A DNA stretch of 64,000 nt from Candidatus Poribacteria bacterium (GTDB taxonomy: Bacteria > Poribacteria > WGA-4E > PCPOR2b), in contig OZ244950.1 in the NCBI GenBank assembly GCA_965222435.1, positions 1,707,273 to 1,771,272 on the forward strand, read 5' to 3'. Positions 4,414 to 38,894 of the stretch are shown piece by piece (positions within the stretch are counted from its first letter, which is position 1; the number at the start of each line of letters is the position of its first letter). The translations under genes and the position numbers were made by a program. The notes under the pieces were generated by a model, which was not told the DNA's origin, ran no database searches, and saw only the letters and a program-made list of their open reading frames with translations.

Positions 4414-5979
4414 ATGAAGGGAAAGAAAAAATCGTTACGGTTGGGGCGTGTCTTGTGCACTCTCCTTATGGCGTCGTTGATTCTCCTACTCTGCGGAATA
4501 CCGGTGGCAAATGCACAAACGTCCCAGCAAATCGCCAAAAAAGCACTAGCAGCGACGGTGCTCTTAGTCATGGAAGACGCTAATAGCCGGCCGCTTTCAA
4601 TCGGTAGTGGATTCTTCGTGCAACCCAACCAGATTGTAACCAACTTTGACGTTATCGAAGGTGCCGTTAAGGGCTACGCAAAACGCGTGGGTGAAAAAAC
4701 GAAACGCGACATTGAAGGTGTCACCGGATTTGACGAGCAAGGGACTCTGGTTATACTAAAGGTGTCGGGCTCTGATGTTCAGCCGCTTCCCCTAGGCGAT
4801 AGTAACAAGGTTGGGATTGGTGAGACCGTTTATGTCGCGAGCAATCCAAAAGGAGATTTGGAAGGCACATTCTCGAAGGGCCTTATTAGTGGACTTCAAG
4901 GGGATTCAACCAACAAACAACTCCAGATGACGGTTCTGATTTATCCAGCGAGTAGTGGAGGTCCCGTGCTAAACGGAATGGGTGAAGTGATAGGTGTTTC
5001 GGTGGCAACCTTCCGCAGAGGGCAGAATCTTAGTTTTGCCATTCCTTCAAACGATCTCACAGCACTCGCCGCTACAGTTGGCCCCGCGATACCGTTGTCG
5101 AAATGGCAACAACTTATGTCTTCCGCTATAGGCAATTTGAAGGGGATTTTTAGCGATTATAAGGGTGCTATCGCTGACTTGGACACTGCTATCCGACTTG
5201 ACCCTGATAATTTCTTTGCTTACTTTAACCGGGGAGTTGCCAAGGGTGAGTTGGGTGATTATAAGGGTGCCATCGTTGATTTTGATACCGCTATCCGACT
5301 CAAACCCGATTATGCCGCTGCCTACTTTAATCGGGGAACTATCAAAGTAAAATTAGGACAACACTTCGCCGCTATCGCCGACTATGATACTGCTATCCGA
5401 CTTAAACCCGATTATGCCAAAGCCTACGATAGTCGGGGGACTGCCAAGGCAGCATTAGGACAACATTTCGCCGCTATCACCGACTATGATACTGCTATCC
5501 GACTCAAACCCGATGGTGTCATTGCCTACTTTAATCGGGGAACTACCAAGGCAGAATTAGGACAACACTTCGCCGCCATCGCCGACTATGATACTGCCAT
5601 CCGACTCAAATCCGATTATGCCGCTGCCTACGGTAATCGGGGGATTGTCAAGGCAGAATTAGGACAACACTTCGCCGCTATCACCGACTATGATATTGCC
5701 ATCCGGCTTAAACCTGATAATGTCATTAACTACCTTAATCGAGGAAATGCGAAGGCAGAATTAGGACAATATTCCGATGCTATCACTGACTACGATACCG
5801 TCATCCGACTCAAATCCGATTTTGCCAAAGCCTATTATAATCGGGGATTGGCAAAGTACGGCTTGAGTCGGTCCATGGAGGCAAAGCAAGATTTTCAAAC
5901 GGCATTGAAACATGCGGATCAGGCTGGCGATGCGCTTCTCAAAACCCAAATTGAGTCGGCGATTCGAGACCTCCACTAG
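4414..5979 (+). CDS. secreted trypsin-like serine protease with C-terminal TPR repeats
   Basis: N-terminal signal peptide; S1-like motifs (GSGFFV, PASSGGPVLN); about seven consecutive 34-aa TPR units (AIADYDTAIRLKPDYAAAYFNRG...). Confidence 0.65.
   Translation: MKGKKKSLRLGRVLCTLLMASLILLLCGIPVANAQTSQQIAKKALAATVLLVMEDANSRPLSIGSGFFVQPNQIVTNFDVIEGAVKGYAKRVGEKTKRDIEGVTGFDEQGTLVILKVSGSDVQPLPLGDSNKVGIGETVYVASNPKGDLEGTFSKGLISGLQGDSTNKQLQMTVLIYPASSGGPVLNGMGEVIGVSVATFRRGQNLSFAIPSNDLTALAATVGPAIPLSKWQQLMSSAIGNLKGIFSDYKGAIADLDTAIRLDPDNFFAYFNRGVAKGELGDYKGAIVDFDTAIRLKPDYAAAYFNRGTIKVKLGQHFAAIADYDTAIRLKPDYAKAYDSRGTAKAALGQHFAAITDYDTAIRLKPDGVIAYFNRGTTKAELGQHFAAIADYDTAIRLKSDYAAAYGNRGIVKAELGQHFAAITDYDIAIRLKPDNVINYLNRGNAKAELGQYSDAITDYDTVIRLKSDFAKAYYNRGLAKYGLSRSMEAKQDFQTALKHADQAGDALLKTQIESAIRDLH
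5150..5870 (+). repeat. tandem ~102-bp repeats encoding TPR units
   Basis: Near-identical 102-nt units visible at nucleotide level (gctatccgactcaaacccgat... recurring), in-frame within the protease gene. Confidence 0.6.
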
Positions 5980-6084
5980 CGAGGCAGTAATACCACACAA
6001 AAGGGGAACTTGGAATTCTTGACTTTGAGATAGTGGAATGATGTTGTCTAACAAGCCATTGGAAAGTGAAACAACGATGGAACA

Positions 6085-6963
6085 GTGTTTGATGAAGGGA
6101 GCGCGTTGATTGTGATTTTCTATAAATACGTTACCGCAGAACGAATTGATATTCTTCAAAATCGCCTAATCCGGTTCACGCAACCTGACGCGTTGAATGA
6201 TCCCTTTGAAGCTAAACCGCATTTCCACGCATTCGCAACAAAGGCGGGGCTTGCAAGTGCCTTTGCAGATATGATTAGGCAGGCTCCTACTGTTGTATGG
6301 GAAGACTTCCGGAGAGTAACACAAACCAACTTAGATCGACGAGCGTTCGCTGATAAACTTGAGGGAGATCCCGATTATGCTGATTGGCTATATAAGAATG
6401 TTGGTTTGCCGGACCCCCTTCCTAAGGAACGGAAAAAAGTGAGGAAATGGTTTAAGGTTGTAGGCATCCTATCCCTTTCCGAAACATGGGATAATCTGCT
6501 CATGTGGGCACACTATGCCGAAGAACACACCGGTTTTGTTCTTATGCTTGACGGTTCCCATGATTTCTTCAAAGGAGATAATTCTTTACTTGGGTTTGCA
6601 AAACCTGAACGTGTTGAATACAAATCGGAGCGTCCGAGTACAACAATTGAAGAGGTAACCGTGCCAGAGATCTTCCTGACTAAAGGTTTCGATTGGAAAT
6701 ATGAGAAAGAGTGGCGGTATTTGAAGTACCTCAACGGTGCGGACGAGCGACGCGAGGAACCCAATACTTATCCTGTGGAGCTCTTCAGGTTGCCCCTCAA
6801 GTGCATAAGGGGTGTAATCCTTGGGTGTCGCAGATCTAAAGAATTAGAAAATAACATCGTTGCCTTACGACGCGATGATCCGGAGTTTGGGCACTTGCAA
6901 ATCCTACAAGCACGTGCATCTACAAGGCGTTACCGGCTAGGGATAGAGGAAATAAAAACCTAA
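6085..6963 (+). CDS. DUF2971 family protein
   Basis: N-terminal FYKY...LNDPFE motif followed by LSLSETWDNLLMWAHYAEEHTGFVLMLD, characteristic of DUF2971. Confidence 0.5.
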   Translation: MFDEGSALIVIFYKYVTAERIDILQNRLIRFTQPDALNDPFEAKPHFHAFATKAGLASAFADMIRQAPTVVWEDFRRVTQTNLDRRAFADKLEGDPDYADWLYKNVGLPDPLPKERKKVRKWFKVVGILSLSETWDNLLMWAHYAEEHTGFVLMLDGSHDFFKGDNSLLGFAKPERVEYKSERPSTTIEEVTVPEIFLTKGFDWKYEKEWRYLKYLNGADERREEPNTYPVELFRLPLKCIRGVILGCRRSKELENNIVALRRDDPEFGHLQILQARASTRRYRLGIEEIKT

Positions 6964-7112: not shown

Positions 7113-8246
7113 ATGTTAAAAATTATTGACAACGGCATCATTTCCCACCAGAAAGAGCGGGGAGCGTACATGCCCGTGATCACCCCCCTCACAGACGGTA
7201 GTTTCATCGCCTGTCAGCATGTCGGGCAGGGGCTAGGCACACCGGACAATCATATCGAGATACTTCGTTCAATGGATGGGGGCGCAACATGGGTCAATGA
7301 AGGGAGCATCCATCCCGGCGGCACGCCTATTGCTTTGAATCCCGATGAAATCGGGGCGGACGGATGGTCTTATCGGGGTCCAAAGATTAGCGAGGTTCCA
7401 GACGGTCGCTTGGTGATGAACGCTACCCGTTTCGAGAACGAGGGCGGCACGCTCTTTGACACGGAATCGGAAGCCTTGCAGCGTCCGGAGATTCTGCTGT
7501 TCTGGTCAGAAGATCAAGGCAAAACGTGGTCAGAACCGCAGGTCGTGCCGGTAGACCTACCGCCCGAAAAATACACATGGAACGGGGCTGGACCTCTCTT
7601 GCAACTCGTGCCGGATCGGTGGATGTACCCCCTCGAAACGTGGAAGCCCGAAGGCTATGAAGGTCCTCCCGATCAGAAGGCAGCGGCTGTATTCTCCGCA
7701 GATCAGGGAGAAACGTGGGGAGAGTTCACCGTCGTCGCAGATGACCTCACAGGCGCGTTGCTCTGGTGGGATCAGATGTGCGCCTTGTTACCGGATGGAC
7801 GCATCTATACCCTAATCTGGACGCACCAGTACGGAACCTCCGAGGACTTGACGAACCACTGGGTGATCTCTGAAGACGGTGGACGTACTTGGTCCGAACC
7901 CCGACCGACAAATCTGCGCGGTCAGGTCTGCACCCCCATCCCGCTGCCCGACGGTCGCGTGGCGGCAATCTACAATTTCCGACACGAACCCCAAGGCATC
8001 CATGTGGCACTGACCGAAGACCTTGAGAATTTCGACGTAGAGAACGAGGTCGTGGTCTTTGATGCAGGAAAAGAGGCAACCCTCGGCGAACCTGAGAACG
8101 AGAACTTCCTCGCTGAACACATGCAGATCGCTTTTGGCAAGCCCGGTGGGACAACCCTGCCGGACGGGGATGTGATGACCTATTTCTGGTGTACTGTGGC
8201 GGGAGTCACCCATACGCGCTGGGTGAAATTGCGATTGGAAGGCTAA
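7113..8246 (+). CDS. BNR/Asp-box repeat protein (sialidase-like glycosidase)
   Basis: Four Asp-box motifs S/D-x-D-x-G-x-T-W (MDGGATW, DQGKTWSEP, DQGETWGEF, DGGRTWSEP). Confidence 0.65.
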   Translation: MLKIIDNGIISHQKERGAYMPVITPLTDGSFIACQHVGQGLGTPDNHIEILRSMDGGATWVNEGSIHPGGTPIALNPDEIGADGWSYRGPKISEVPDGRLVMNATRFENEGGTLFDTESEALQRPEILLFWSEDQGKTWSEPQVVPVDLPPEKYTWNGAGPLLQLVPDRWMYPLETWKPEGYEGPPDQKAAAVFSADQGETWGEFTVVADDLTGALLWWDQMCALLPDGRIYTLIWTHQYGTSEDLTNHWVISEDGGRTWSEPRPTNLRGQVCTPIPLPDGRVAAIYNFRHEPQGIHVALTEDLENFDVENEVVVFDAGKEATLGEPENENFLAEHMQIAFGKPGGTTLPDGDVMTYFWCTVAGVTHTRWVKLRLEG

Positions 8247-9199: not shown

Positions 9200-9343
9200 A
9201 TTTTCGCAGATTGCTTTGAACCCCGATCTCATCGGGGAAAAACAGAAAGGCTCATATAAAAAGAAAGTGCAAAATGCGAAGCGAAATTGTAGGGGCGGGG
9301 TCTCCCCGCCCGTAGTACGGGTTGGGGGACCCAACCCCTACAA
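9200..9343. repeat. composite intergenic repeat block (hairpin repeat + GTAG-flanked palindromes, REP/BIME-like)
   Basis: ttgctttgaaccccgatctcatcgggg at 9200..9226; gtagg-ggcgggg...ccccgcc-cgtag followed by gggttggg-gga-cccaaccc-ctac; homologous copies elsewhere in window. Confidence 0.5.
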
Positions 9344-11089: not shown

Positions 11090-12166
11090 ATGACGGATAG
11101 ATCTCATCCGCTGCGCGTCGGCGTTGTTGGTTGTGGTGGTTTTGGACGCAATGCCTATGTGAACAATGTCGTTGAAAACCCTGACGCCAGCTTGGTCGCA
11201 CTCTGCGACGTCGATCTGGCACAGGCGGAAGCCGCCGCACGTGAAGTCTTTGATGAGGGTGGCAGAGAACCGCGTCCGGCACTTTACGCAGACTATCAAG
11301 CGATGATCGACCAAGAATCTCTTGATGTCGTCATGGTTGGAACGATGGCAGGTGTCCGTCCGCGTGTGGCAATCTATGCGTTGAATGCCGGTGCGCACGT
11401 CCTCGCTGCCAAGCCGATGGCACCGTCCTTGGCAGAGGCGGAGGAGATGCTCCAGAAGGCAAAGGAAGCGGACAGGATTCTGATGGTCGGCTATAACTTC
11501 CGATTCCGCGATGATGCACAGGTCGTGCACCGCTTTATCCGTGACGGTGGCATCGGGACACCCCGCTTTGCCCGTGCTTGGTCATTTGCCCCTAGCGTAC
11601 CAATCCGCGGATCCCACTACAAAGCAAGGTCAGGGGGCGGCTCACTCGCCAGAACTGGGGTTCACGCGATGGACTTGGCAATCTGGTTCCTTGGCAATCC
11701 ACCGCTCATCTCCGTGCATGGCCGGGCGGTCTCACGCTTTGCCACCCTTCCTGCACTGCCCTCCGAATTGGAACCCCTCCGAGGTGACTACGACGATCCA
11801 GATCTGGTCAGCGGCTATGTCCACTTCGCCGATGGCGTCACGCTGTCCGTCGAGAGTATGTGGATGGCACCGCCGCAGATCGGCGATAACGGTGTCGAGG
11901 TGTGGGGAACGCAAGGCTACGTTTCGGTGACACCGTTACAATTGCTGACTTGGCAGGATGGCGATTACGCCGATGTGACCGAGCAGGTTGCTCCGGGCGT
12001 TGCCAATTCCTTCCATGACCACTCGAGCAACCGGCTATGCCGCGAGGTCTTTCATTTCATCGACTGCGTTCTCGGCAGAGCGACACCGCTTATAACGCCG
12101 CAAGAGATGTGGACGGATCAGGCAATCGTCGATGGAATCTACGCCGGCACGAAAGTAGTGAAATAA
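11090..12166 (+). CDS. Gfo/Idh/MocA family oxidoreductase
   Basis: N-terminal Rossmann motif LRVGVVGCGGFGRNAYV and family-typical length (358 aa). Confidence 0.75.
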   Translation: MTDRSHPLRVGVVGCGGFGRNAYVNNVVENPDASLVALCDVDLAQAEAAAREVFDEGGREPRPALYADYQAMIDQESLDVVMVGTMAGVRPRVAIYALNAGAHVLAAKPMAPSLAEAEEMLQKAKEADRILMVGYNFRFRDDAQVVHRFIRDGGIGTPRFARAWSFAPSVPIRGSHYKARSGGGSLARTGVHAMDLAIWFLGNPPLISVHGRAVSRFATLPALPSELEPLRGDYDDPDLVSGYVHFADGVTLSVESMWMAPPQIGDNGVEVWGTQGYVSVTPLQLLTWQDGDYADVTEQVAPGVANSFHDHSSNRLCREVFHFIDCVLGRATPLITPQEMWTDQAIVDGIYAGTKVVK

Positions 12167-12198
12167 GTTGCTAGTTCCGTTGAATCTGACAGCACGTA

Positions 12199-12423
12199 GG
12201 TTGGGTTGAACGACATTCATAAAACATACTTAAATCGCTCCTCTTGGATTGCGGAAATCTATTCAACTTGAAATCTCACAAATTCTAGTGAAACCCAACT
12301 CTTGATACATGGATTAGATGTTGGGTTTCACTGTATCTATTTATAAAACAGTGTTATCGAAAGACTAAACCACGATCGTCATTGATAGCGATGCGCTTTG
12401 AACAGTTCAACCCAACCTACAGC
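12199..12423. repeat. MITE-like element with 16-bp terminal inverted repeats
   Basis: gtaggttgggttgaac at 12199..12214 and its reverse complement gttcaacccaacctac at 12408..12423 flank an AT-rich core with an inner inverted repeat (agtgaaacccaac / gttgggtttcact). Confidence 0.35.
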
Positions 12424-12438
12424 CAACACTGTGCGGAA

Positions 12439-12470
12439 GAAACCGAGTTTTGAAGAAAAAACTCGGTTTC
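12439..12470. terminator. palindromic hairpin gaaaccgagtttt-gaag-aaaaaactcggtttc between convergent genes
   Basis: Perfect 13-bp stem; lies between the 3' ends of the + strand oxidoreductase and the - strand redoxin gene; same family as 8254 and 33510. Confidence 0.45.
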
Positions 12471-12512
12471 AGGGCAAATAACTTTACCCAAAATGGCTTT
12501 TCAAACAGGTTC

Positions 12513-13070
12513 TTAGAGAAACGCTTTCTCTCTCGATTCCTCCGAGACATCCCACGCACGGTCATATTCATAGTCGTCCCGACGCGCTAACAGTGCCCGC
12601 AGATCGTGTCGCAGTTCCTCCACGGTGGGTCTTCCAACAAACCACCAACCGTTGTAAATCTTGTAGATCTCCCGGTCCGCGTTAAGGACGAAAGTATAGG
12701 GGATAGGAATCGGCGAGTGGCGGGCGTCCGTGTTGTCTACAATGTCCAATTCATTGATCAATGCCCGGTCAAGGTCAATCAGGAAGGGCCACGTCGCGCC
12801 GATACGTTCACGAAGCGCCCTCGTTGTTTCCTGATCATCAACTGAGACAGCAATTAGCCTACAGTAGTTGACTTCTAGTTCGGGCTGCAAATCTTTTGCG
12901 TAATTCTCCAACTGGAGAACATCCTTCGGTCAATATGCCCCACGCCAGAAGACCAAGACCGTGGGCCAACCACGCATCAAATCCTCCAGCGTTCTGACCA
13001 TGCCATCTTGATCGGGACGTTCAAAGTTCGGGAATATGTTGCCCGGTATCAAATCTTCACGGATCTTCAT
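12513..13070 (-). CDS. thioredoxin-fold redoxin (peroxiredoxin-like) with in-frame TGA: candidate selenoprotein
   Basis: ATG at 13070..13068 preceded by aggagg (5-nt spacer); reading frame is continuous with listed ORF 12513..12911 except for one TGA at 12932..12930; translation ...TVLVFWRGAY-U-PKDVLQLENYAKDLQ... places TGA at the expected redox-Cys position. Confidence 0.6.
12904..12919 (-). promoter_or_regulatory. candidate bacterial SECIS hairpin
   Basis: uucucc-AGUU-ggagaa hairpin beginning 14 nt after the in-frame UGA, apical loop contains GU. Confidence 0.4.
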
Positions 13071-24366: not shown

Positions 24367-24755
24367 CAGGAGGAGGACTAATACTTTAACGTGAGCTGCT
24401 AGACTCTATTGACATTTAACAGGAGTGTAAGTCGAAGATTCTCGGAACGGGGTTGAGTTGAACGGGAATCTGAAACCCAACACCATAACCGTAGGTCGAG
24501 CAGCTTGTCCGACTTAAAACCCCAGTTGCTTTGAATCCCGATCTTATTGGGGCGGGGCAGCAAGTGTATAGAAAATCAGACGCTGCATACCTAAAACTTC
24601 AGTTGGTTTGAAACTCGATCGCAGCATCGGGCCGAGGCAACATGTGTTTAGTCATTTCTAGCAGTTGTTGAGCATGGAAACTCAACCTCAGCAGGTCGTG
24701 GTGGAAATCATTTGACATGATGGCTCGACTTGGATTGACAAATCCACAGAGGAGG

Positions 24756-27143: not shown

Positions 27144-27484
27144 TTTTGTCCCCCTTCATTTTTCATCAACTATAATGATGCAACATTTGTCAAGCCTATC
27201 ACAAGAAAAACGTGGTATTCCACAGGGTATGTTGACATTTTACTGTCGCTAATTCGGGAGATGCTAGAATCATCCCTCTATCTGTCAAAAACCGAGGCGG
27301 TTATCCGAAATTACCTCAAGTTGCTTTAAATCCCGATCTTATCGGGGGTGTATTAGGTCAAAGACTCTCGGAACGGAGATTGATTCAATCTGTCAAATGT
27401 CAATAGAACTGAGTAAAAAAATGAAATCACAGATACCACCAATCTGCCATCTTAATTAGTAAGCCAACCGATACAAGCAAAAAC

Positions 27485-33490: not shown

Positions 33491-33541
33491 GTTAAGAAAT
33501 CGTGCAACAGAAACCGAGTTTTCAAGAAAAAACTCGGTTTC
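33491..33541 (-). terminator. palindromic hairpin plus conserved flanking motif
   Basis: gaaaccgagtttt-caag-aaaaaactcggtttc at 33510..33541 preceded by gttaagaaatcgtgcaacag, the reverse complement of the motif upstream of the PhyH gene at 9402. Confidence 0.4.
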
Positions 33542-33564
33542 TTTTATAGATAGCAACTAGGTCA

Positions 33565-38472: not shown

Positions 38473-38492
38473 CAGTCACCAAATCAGGGCAT

Positions 38493-38524
38493 AAAAAAAG
38501 CCTCCCCTACAGAAAGAGGGAGGC
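38493..38524 (-). terminator. intrinsic-terminator-like hairpin plus U7 in the leader of the HD-pyrR-pyrC cluster
   Basis: Minus-strand gcctccc-loop-gggaggc followed by ttttttt, about 20 nt upstream of the HD-gene ATG. Confidence 0.4.
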
Positions 38525-38756
38525 ACTTAACCATTCAATAGTTTTTGAGATATGGGAGTAACCGTAAATCATGTGTGATACCCTTTCCTAACCTCGCGGG
38601 ATCAGATTAAAAGGGAAAATTCTTCCATGTACGCCGCTGCCATTAAAACCGTTTTAAGTGTAGCACAATTGATCTATTTTTGCAAGAGAAATGTTGACCA
38701 TTGACATCGTGCGAAAATTCTGCTAAACTTAATCCCATCATTAAAATCAGGACTTA

Positions 38757-38810
38757 CGCAGCGTGTAGGGGCGAGGTCACCTCGCCCGTAGGGAACAACG
38801 ATCGTTGTTC
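38757..38810. repeat. GTAG-flanked double palindrome (REP/BIME-like)
   Basis: gtagg-ggcgagg-tca-cctcgcc-cgtag then ggaacaacga/tcgttgttcc-ctac; same architecture as 9288..9343 with compensatory stem changes. Confidence 0.45.
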
Positions 38811-38894
38811 CCTACCGAAGTGTGTAACCCCTAAAATTGTTAGTCAGCCAGAAAGTACCATTCCAAATTTATTTAGATTGACGGGAGAACATCT

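Follow-up and report, generated by a model that had tools for sequence, protein, structure and literature searches.

A probable REPIN-like dimer of long-loop GTAG-tagged repeats between convergent genes of Candidatus Poribacteria

The 64,000-nucleotide stretch of Candidatus Poribacteria DNA analyzed here (contig OZ244950.1, positions 1,707,273 to 1,771,272; henceforth the window) carries, between two convergent genes, a non-coding element of 225 bp at 12196-12420 (GC 0.378). To its left lies a gene for an oxidoreductase of the GFO/IDH/MocA type (358 aa, 11090-12166, forward strand; Pfam PF01408, PF22725 and PF02894) and to its right a gene for an AhpC/TSA-type redoxin (12513-13070, reverse strand; Pfam PF00578), which is the convergent setting that the original prediction, made from the letters of the sequence, had described. 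That prediction took the element for a miniature transposable element with inverted repeats (MITE), bounded by terminal inverted repeats (TIRs). The outer arms, GTAGGTTGGGTTGAAC and GTTCAACCCAACCTAC, are indeed 16 nt long and 100% complementary; they are found at 12196-12211 and 12405-12420, three nucleotides to the left of where they had been placed, with 193 nt between them. As had been claimed, the interior is AT-rich (GC 0.358 over 12212-12404, against 0.498 for the window) and devoid of open reading frames (ORFs): none of 40 aa or more lies inside the element, and two mechanical ORFs on the reverse strand (12035-12220 and 12407-12571) clip its ends only. An inverted repeat of this kind exceeds chance. 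Perfect 16-nt inverted repeats at such a spacing are expected about 0.01 times (an estimate from 64,000 x 600 / 4^16), and the whole window has only five inverted repeats that are 14 nt or longer and span no more than 600 bp, the element's among them. Nowhere else in the window does the 16-mer pair recur.

Inspection of the arms shows the element to be a head-to-head dimer. What had been read as the TIRs of a single MITE are the tagged ends of two distinct units, each about 100 bp long, which lie back to back and point their GTAG outward. Unit 1 (12196-12299, forward strand, 104 nt) consists of GTAG (12196-12199), arm A (GTTGGGTTGAAC, 12200-12211), a long loop (12212-12287) and arm B (GTGAAACCCAAC, 12288-12299); unit 2 (12320-12420, reverse strand, 101 nt) repeats this arrangement with GTAG at 12420-12417, arm A at 12416-12405, the loop at 12404-12332 and arm B at 12331-12320. 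The untagged B ends of the two units face one another across a 20-nt spacer, TCTTGATACATGGATTAGAT (12300-12319). The second inverted repeat that had been reported inside the element is present (AGTGAAACCCAAC and GTTGGGTTTCACT, 13 nt at 12287-12299 and 12320-12332, 100% complementary, 20 nt apart), but it is made of these two untagged ends and is no separate feature. The GTAG...CTAC termini had been offered as a tie to families of repetitive extragenic palindromic (REP) sequences, and that tie is correct. When folded, both strands are far more stable than shuffled sequences (z = -5.7 and -7.3), because the element contains four conserved end motifs; its halves are otherwise unrelated, their interiors being 0.548 identical where random pairs have a median of 0.544. 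The possibility that the whole is one long palindrome was rejected on the same ground, the halves of the dimer being unrelated.

The outer and inner repeats share a core, AACCCAAC, which prompted a scan of a collection holding one genome per species with the pattern GTTGGGTTNNAC-N{60,90}-GTNNAACCCAAC; blocks of 8 kb were taken around the matches, and L numbers name blocks or loci. Similar termini proved very abundant, at least 119 genome blocks containing units, so that the element is not the single-copy sequence for which the original prediction had allowed. Candidatus Poribacteria metagenome-assembled genomes (MAGs) account for 116 of the matches listed; the three others among them are a Scytonema, a Cyanobacteriota MAG and a 'Caldilineaceae' MAG. 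A relaxed, oriented re-scan for end A and end B, covering the 119 blocks and the window, returned 189 units, against 0 in shuffled blocks. Judged by the additional elements within the blocks, the density is about 19 per Mb or, as a rough estimate, 110 per genome, which is consistent with the finding of one dimer in a 64-kb window. A scan of viral contigs with the 16-mer gave 22 single, scattered matches, about the number expected by chance, and is uninformative.

Both halves of the window element belong to this family. Unit 1 was found by the oriented scan, and its stem (8 bp, a tandem G.A/A.G mismatch and 2 bp) is that of the family consensus; along its whole length it matches L129 4829-4936 at ~73% identity. 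Unit 2 is 72-76% identical, again over the full length, to at least 17 units of other Poribacteria genomes, in L033, L038, L039 (two units), L048, L049, L050, L052, L057, L079, L093, L094, L103, L113, L117 and L138.

The units are asymmetric: end A reads GTAG-GTTGGGTTGAAC-G and end B reads (G)AGTGAAACCCAAC. About 90% of them measure 100-104 nt, GTAG included, with a loop of ~75 nt. The four letters of the tag are each conserved at 99-100% in positions 1-4 (115 units), and the unit ends are near-invariant, including at positions that the search pattern left free. The consensus structure of 101 aligned units (RNAalifold) is a terminal stem and nothing else: eight invariant base pairs, GTTGGGTT/AACCCAAC, followed by the tandem G.A/A.G mismatch and two further pairs. 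One pair of the stem covaries. Columns 15 and 104 hold A-U in 79 units and G-C in 16, with both sides changed in 18 cells; shuffles give 3.0 +/- 1.4, and 0 of 500 attain the observed count. Even if it records one event, this covariation speaks for pairing between the A and B ends of one and the same unit; the pairing of outer arm with outer arm, which the MITE label implied, is not what covaries. Folded under DNA parameters, 68 of 70 units form the A/B stem.

The loop is of a different character. It has no excess of structure beyond the stem (z = -0.3), and its sequence is barely conserved: median pairwise identity is 0.549 against 0.535 for shuffled loops, with 1.8% of pairs above 0.70. Weakly, the loops are still homologous. 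Certain positions show preferences (A at position 28 in 77%, at 81 in 80% and at 83 in 83% of units; C at 62 in 61%), and the strands are skewed, 80% of units having A>T and 80% C>G. In Poribacteria the tag and stem are only rarely joined to a short loop, of 3-7 nt (L098, L057 and L066); such short forms also occur in the two cyanobacterial matches.

Head-to-head dimers with GTAG outward contain 104 of the 189 units (55%), and the remaining 85 are single. Counting that of the window, there are 52 such dimers (a forward unit, a spacer of 19-44 nt and a reverse unit) in the re-scanned blocks and window, compared with no tail-to-tail dimers (GTAG inward) and three tandem pairs. Stems come in two types, GAAC/GTG and GAGC/GCG, which are combined as heterodimers in 20 of 50 dimers, and decayed partner units are common. 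The halves of a dimer are unrelated beyond their ends across the family, the median loop identity within dimers being 0.548 against 0.544 for random pairs. Elements are intergenic, just 4 of ~137 lying in long ORFs. Convergent, divergent and tandem contexts are represented at close to the background of intergenic gaps, and single units between co-directional genes show no bias of orientation (20 versus 20). The base before GTAG is a pyrimidine in 90% of the 189 units (C 58%, T 32%), and the base after the B end is A in 60% of units. No target-site duplication (TSD) was detected at 51 dimers and 87 single units, where the length distributions equalled those of shuffled controls.

The family bears a signature of mobility. 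In 13 pairs of dimers both halves are at least 0.70 identical and the spacers are similar, while both outer flanks are unrelated; one of these pairs lies within a single chromosome (L124 and L145, both OY764073.1). Among pairs of units with similar interiors, 108 share similarity only past the B end, that is, on the side of the dimer partner, and not past the GTAG end; a further 58 share neither flank. Recurring dimers and this pattern of flanks, read from sequence comparison, support the view that the family is mobile, and to this extent the original prediction of a repeated, non-coding element with the behavior of mobile DNA holds. A search for empty sites among the fetched blocks returned filled orthologues and an embedded MITE only, and a clean insertion junction of the family is therefore not definable.

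At the locus of the window the element is a lineage-specific gain. Homologues of the oxidoreductase, 85-96% identical, are found in long contigs of sponge-associated metagenome assemblies, and four relatives are syntenic (89-96% identity of the oxidoreductase protein, 87-95% of the DNA). The convergent genes stand 17, 11 and 11 bp apart in three of these and overlap by 4 bp in the fourth, as compared with a gap of 346 bp in the window. Alignment to the relatives shows homology ending at ~12161-12167 and restarting at ~12509-12515. Approximately 346 bp were therefore gained, and ~30 bp lost, the last codons of the oxidoreductase included, in the lineage of the window. The window protein ends 5-10 residues earlier than its counterparts in three of the four relatives, and its sequence diverges after ...KVVK (homologues measure 356-368 aa); an exact-protein look-up with it returned no record.

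The gained DNA forms a mosaic, in which a 29-nt junction is followed by the 225-bp element, by 11 nt and by an 82-nt hairpin module. The junction (12167-12195), which runs from the oxidoreductase stop codon to the element and which the four aligned relatives lack, ends in ...CAGCAC, and GCAC or CAGCAC also precedes GTAG in L074, L039, L041, L055 and L098. The module (12432-12513), which abuts the redoxin stop codon, is an unrelated dispersed repeat of ~82 nt with a 13-bp hairpin, GAAACCGAGTTTT/AAAACTCGGTTTC, at 12439-12470. It is 89-91% identical to non-orthologous sequence at L116 4302-4383 and L143 2891-2972; its hairpin recurs at 33506-33545 of the window and, alone, in many Poribacteria blocks, and a consensus scan calls no canonical terminator in it. 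What happened at this locus is ordinary: lineage-specific selfish DNA has filled an intergenic gap and trimmed a few codons off a gene.

The stem of the family is linked to a transposase in other organisms. Short-loop forms of the same GTAG-stem are widespread in metagenomes, at no fewer than 120 loci, where 138 of 143 copies are 29-32 nt long with loops of 3-4 nt. A hidden Markov model (HMM) of REP-associated tyrosine transposases (RAYTs), for which 24 published RAYT/TIRYT sequences were taken from supplement 5 of PMC3733652, identified two RAYT genes at these loci, in L184 and L150, both flanked by the same stem. The RAYT of L184 (180 aa) is preceded by a short REP and by a 95-nt long-loop unit that ends 19 nt before the ATG, and is followed by a short REP and an inverted variant. 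Its homologue P0094 is encoded at 6001-6543 of L269 (ctg80572l of ENA ERZ21869602, a 28-kb contig), within a REPtron at 5862-6588: here a 99-nt long-loop unit of the GAGC/GCG type ends 40 nt before the ATG, and an inverted 32-nt short REP follows the stop codon. [quoted passage not shown] Among the best 120 of 911 homologues of the L184 RAYT, the closest named ones are cyanobacterial RAYTs at ~50% identity. With the REPtron of L269 placed in the Chloroflexota, its probable phylum, the same REP stem is present in at least three phyla.

Three further RAYT homologues, P0147, P0139 and P0177, were rejected as partners, their REPtrons carrying other GTAG repeats. In L270 and L271 the RAYT genes (6001-6552 and 6001-6522) are flanked by arrays of other GTAG repeats (GTAGGGTGCGCA... 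and GTAGGGTGGATTAGACGCGCC...), from which it follows that each RAYT has its own REP stem.

Together these analyses lead us to regard the element, with good though not full confidence, as a REPIN-like entity: a head-to-head dimer of two GTAG-tagged, long-loop REPs that belongs to a family abundant in Candidatus Poribacteria and that would be dispersed by RAYT activity. In outline, a RAYT/TnpA-REP protein (HUH/Y1) would bind GTAG and the mismatched stem on one strand during a single-stranded DNA stage, and would cut and rejoin the DNA beside the stem, so that units or whole dimers are copied into new intergenic sites and no TSD arises. The ~75-nt loop would correspond to the 'upper half' of the hairpin, which in REPs of the E. 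coli type is of little weight in recognition; we propose that it drifts for this reason. In the lineage of the window, the dimer and the unrelated 82-nt hairpin module were added between the convergent genes, replacing ~30 bp that included the last oxidoreductase codons. A fixed GTAG, lower stem and G.A/A.G mismatch combined with a free loop is a pattern that fits the REP recognition model. Sequence comparison establishes that the element belongs to the family, its anatomy and dimeric form, the signature of mobility, the gain in this lineage and the association of the stem with RAYTs in other organisms. For the Poribacteria copies, the action of a RAYT is deduced from the link elsewhere; any role for the host, such as the stabilization of transcript 3' ends, would likewise be a matter of deduction.

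A number of observations weigh against this interpretation. The insertion in the window is not clean, and its dimer has no twin among the sampled blocks: transposition of that particular copy is not demonstrated. Neither the window nor 115 Poribacteria blocks (0.89 Mb) yielded a RAYT, the best match to the 24-sequence HMM having E = 0.47, and no multi-megabase Poribacteria chromosome figures among the 120 best of the 911 proteins homologous to the L184 RAYT. Other searches of the Poribacteria blocks agree: a regular expression for the HUH/Y motif gave 0 matches, and tblastn with E. coli RayT gave only a weak match in L100 (E = 0.039), which was dismissed as spurious, being the antisense strand of an enolase-superfamily gene. 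This absence is weak evidence, because about two RAYTs would be expected at the rate of the short-form sample (2 in 120 loci). Homologues of a neighboring gene point to the Chloroflexota, and not Poribacteria, as the probable source of L269, the RAYT contig with a long-loop unit. The collection scan demanded perfect ends and so inflated the apparent conservation of the ends; and since the G-C units share the start of their loop, the covariation probably reflects one inherited compensatory change. Neutral drift does not explain a loop length that is kept so tightly in the absence of sequence conservation, structure or promoter enrichment. The units also lie outside the size and loop range given for GTAG REPs in PMC3733652, with a loop of ~75 nt and a length of 100-104 nt. 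Finally, the halves of a REPIN are inverted copies that form one long hairpin (PMC3116915), whereas the loops of a Poribacteria dimer are unrelated.

An alternative is that the units are cis elements maintained by the host rather than selfish repeats, selected locus by locus, their ends binding a host protein (nucleoid-associated, gyrase or similar, as for the bacterial interspersed mosaic elements, BIMEs, of E. coli) or forming hairpins at mRNA 3' ends, and the ~90-bp spacing of half-sites reflecting protein geometry. Near-invariant ends beside loops at the random level, a tightly kept loop length and the position of the window copy downstream of two convergent genes are all in keeping with such a role; the A/C-rich skew of the loop in 80% of units suggests some constraint, and the literature credits REPs with roles of this type (PMC3733652). 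However, the units show neither a bias of orientation nor a preference for gene 3' ends over other intergenic contexts, the window copy has no terminator- or promoter-like signal, and promoters are not enriched in 187 units. Moreover, four close relatives do without the element at the locus, and decayed partner units are common. We consider host maintenance unlikely as the explanation. It covers persistence and not dispersal, and is compatible with RAYT-driven dispersal of a REPIN-like dimer rather than exclusive of it.

A further reading, which keeps the RAYT and gives the loop a larger part, strikes us as a long shot. Here the long-loop units would be a distinct RAYT-dependent element: a GTAG-stem 'clamp' carrying a segment of ~71-75 nt that is fixed in length and free in sequence, the fixed length reflecting either a mechanistic ruler or a function of the loop in the host. 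Clamp and transposase would have spread horizontally among unrelated symbionts of sponges or mats (Cyanobacteria, Chloroflexota and Poribacteria), possibly from the long-loop unit that lies directly upstream of the RAYT start in L269 and L184.

The classical MITE of the original prediction (a deletion derivative, ~225 bp long, of a DDE-type insertion sequence with 16-bp TIRs, moving by cut-and-paste with a TSD) is largely refuted, and we regard it as very improbable. It is true that the element is small, AT-rich and non-coding with perfect 16-bp TIRs, that whole dimers recur between unrelated flanks and that true MITEs are present in these genomes. One of the latter serves as a control. It is 237 bp long (L090 2100-2336, with further copies in L095, L058, L125, L077, L040 and L066, and none in the window), has 20-bp TIRs, CAGGGGAAACGCATCTAAtt / aaTTAGATGCGTTTCCCCTG (starting CAGGGGAAACGCATCTAA...), carries one long-loop REP unit of one subfamily embedded within it, and shows TSDs of 9-10 bp (L090, L095 and L077). 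Duplications are therefore detectable in these data when present, and none accompanies the dimers or the single units. Half-elements with one 'TIR' are as common as dimers, and it is the stem within a unit that covaries. In addition, 18 orphan GTAG ends (0.9 Mb) were not seen to bracket a transposase gene, no transposase-carrying element with these termini having been observed, and elsewhere the same ends flank Y1 (RAYT), not DDE, transposase genes.

Least probable of all, to the point of being scarcely credible, is that the units are genes for structured RNAs of ~100 nt, Y-RNA-like or guide-like, their conserved ends forming a closing stem (with one covarying pair) round a variable interior of constant length, a notion to which the strongly negative folding z-scores of the region lend some color, but against which stand the lack of any Rfam match at gathering score in the region (best sub-threshold E 0.38), of a conserved promoter or terminator and of conserved or excess interior structure, the hundreds of copies in both orientations, mostly as inverted dimers, and the RAYT genes flanked by the same ends.

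Three other candidates were rejected. Integron attC sites have the opposite polarity, the units reading 5'-GTTGGGT...ACCCAAC-3' on both strands as against 5'-RYYYAAC ... GTTRRRY-3'. Mobile promoters are not indicated: promoter-like sites occur in 16 and 6 units (for the two strands) versus ~12 +/- 3 in shuffles. As for coding, one subfamily reads from a ribosome-binding site and ATG-like start into the unit, but the ORFs are broken and of unequal length, and unit lengths are not multiples of three.

The window contains other small repeats. At 24443-24560 there is a mosaic cluster that comprises, in order, a degenerate short-loop copy of the family described above that lacks GTAG (GGGTTGAGTTGAAC-GGGAAT-CTGAAACCCAAC); a member of a second GTAG family, GTAGGTCGAGCA-GCT-TGTCCGAC, which is also found after the B ends of units in L039, L057 and L074; and a copy of the hairpin family TTGCTTTGAATCCCGAT...ATCGGGG. 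A 37-nt hairpin repeat, TTGCTTTGAATCCCGATnnnATCGGGG, is present in four copies (7323-7359, 9204-9240, 24519-24555 and 27314-27350), and a related hairpin, CCCGATGAATCGGG, at 2129, 35948 and 35971. A perfect 28-bp palindrome at 38788-38815, GTAGGGAACAACGA/TCGTTGTTCCCTAC, begins with GTAG and may be another type of GTAG-tagged repeat. Larger repeats are a unit of ~1.3 kb in three tandem copies at 43985-46640 (81-100% identity) and a 102-bp tandem repeat with at least six copies at 5167-5949 (60-85% identity), which looks intra-coding (a period of 34 residues). The window's only Rfam match at gathering score is a PyrR binding site, RF00515, at 38491-38618 on the reverse strand (54.5 bits against a cut-off of 54).

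In the redoxin gene beside the element, an in-frame TGA (12930-12932) occupies the place of the catalytic cysteine and is a candidate selenocysteine codon. The gene is split alike, into calls of 47 aa and 132 aa, in three of the four relatives; in the fourth the locus is cut at the contig end. The window has three such in-frame TGAs, each exactly where an AhpC/TSA-type redoxin or peroxiredoxin gene would encode its catalytic cysteine: they lie at 12930-12932 (reverse strand; ...FWRGAY*PKD...), 42324-42326 (forward; ...FYPKDFTGG*TTEL...) and 42777-42779 (forward; ...FYPKDFTDG*TAEV...), and mark candidate selenocysteine enzymes.

REPs and REPINs are the classic case of selfish repeats that persist for long, are inherited vertically and are tied to a domesticated transposase. 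To our knowledge they have been characterized almost only in Proteobacteria, and their description is that of hairpins of 20-40 bp. The Poribacteria family indicates that the same module of GTAG and mismatched stem tolerates a loop of ~75 nt, and that this long-loop form dominates a candidate phylum of uncultured sponge symbionts; it is further distinguished by a stem that is identical across phyla and by a loop whose length is kept without conservation of its sequence. The family thereby offers a natural experiment on which parts of a REP the transposase reads, and provides a marker for Poribacteria contigs. It probably also breaks assemblies and gives rise to small ORFs that are spurious, '...VGFHS...PFNPTY' for example. 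In the literature the exact sequences matched PCR primers only, and our searches found no paper linking Poribacteria with REP, RAYT, REPIN or MITE.

The family can be set beside several known systems. With MITEs, and with the palindrome-associated elements (PATEs) of IS200-IS605, it has in common small size, a lack of coding capacity, multiple copies, inverted ends and a transposase supplied in trans. It differs from DDE MITEs in that the units lack TSDs, and from PATEs in that there are no distinct left and right subterminal hairpins of an insertion sequence, the whole Poribacteria unit being one GTAG-tagged hairpin. The cyanobacterial families GTAG-12, -15 and -16 (Di Nocera et al. 2013; PMC3733652) are proposed kin, equivalence to a numbered family being a lead only. 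The identical tag and stem, GTAGGTTGGGTTGAAC-NNN-GTGAAACCCAAC, occur in Scytonema (L067) and in a Cyanobacteriota MAG (L071); GTAG REPs of this cyanobacterial type differ in that their copies measure 29-32 nt with loops of 3-4 nt.

For the GTAG REP superfamily as a whole, PMC3733652 gives a stem of 5-13 bp, a size of 20-40 bp and loops of 2-20 nt, with 27 nt the reported maximum, and describes inverted dimers with GTAG outward and spacers of 20-100 bp as the usual organization, head-to-head dimers prevailing. The Poribacteria units share the tag, the stem, a high copy number, the extragenic location, the absence of TSDs and the head-to-head dimers, with spacers of 19-44 nt; sizes within the range are found only among the rare Poribacteria short forms noted above and among copies outside Poribacteria. 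The superfamily also has cognate RAYT genes bordered by its repeats (REPtrons), an arrangement seen for this tag and stem in L184, L150 and L269 but not in the window or the 115 Poribacteria blocks searched.

The REP/BIME system of E. coli (group 2 RAYT, TnpA-REP, rayT/yafM, 4ER8; PMC8266576) is alike in its details: a 5' GTAG, a lower stem, a conserved two-base mismatch ('bulge'), a short upper stem and a loop whose sequence carries little weight. Both systems combine two stem types in inverted dimers (Y and Z there, GAAC/GTG and GAGC/GCG here), and both are intergenic, of high copy number and free of TSDs. E. coli units, in contrast, are 29-37 nt long with a loop of a few nucleotides, against ~101 nt and ~75 nt in Poribacteria; the mismatch is AA/GC there and a tandem G.A/A.G here; and the host phylum is a different one, Poribacteria, in whose sample no RAYT has yet been seen.

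It is the REPINs of Pseudomonas fluorescens (Bertels and Rainey 2011, PMC3116915) that the dimer itself recalls. There are differences: each Poribacteria half is itself a stem-loop of 100 nt, and heterodimers are frequent. Nevertheless, both entities consist of two inverted REPs around a short spacer; in both, dimer and spacer recur as a unit between unrelated flanks, as the 13 pairs of Poribacteria dimers do; and in both, single units are at least partly remnant-like, with decayed partners beside them.

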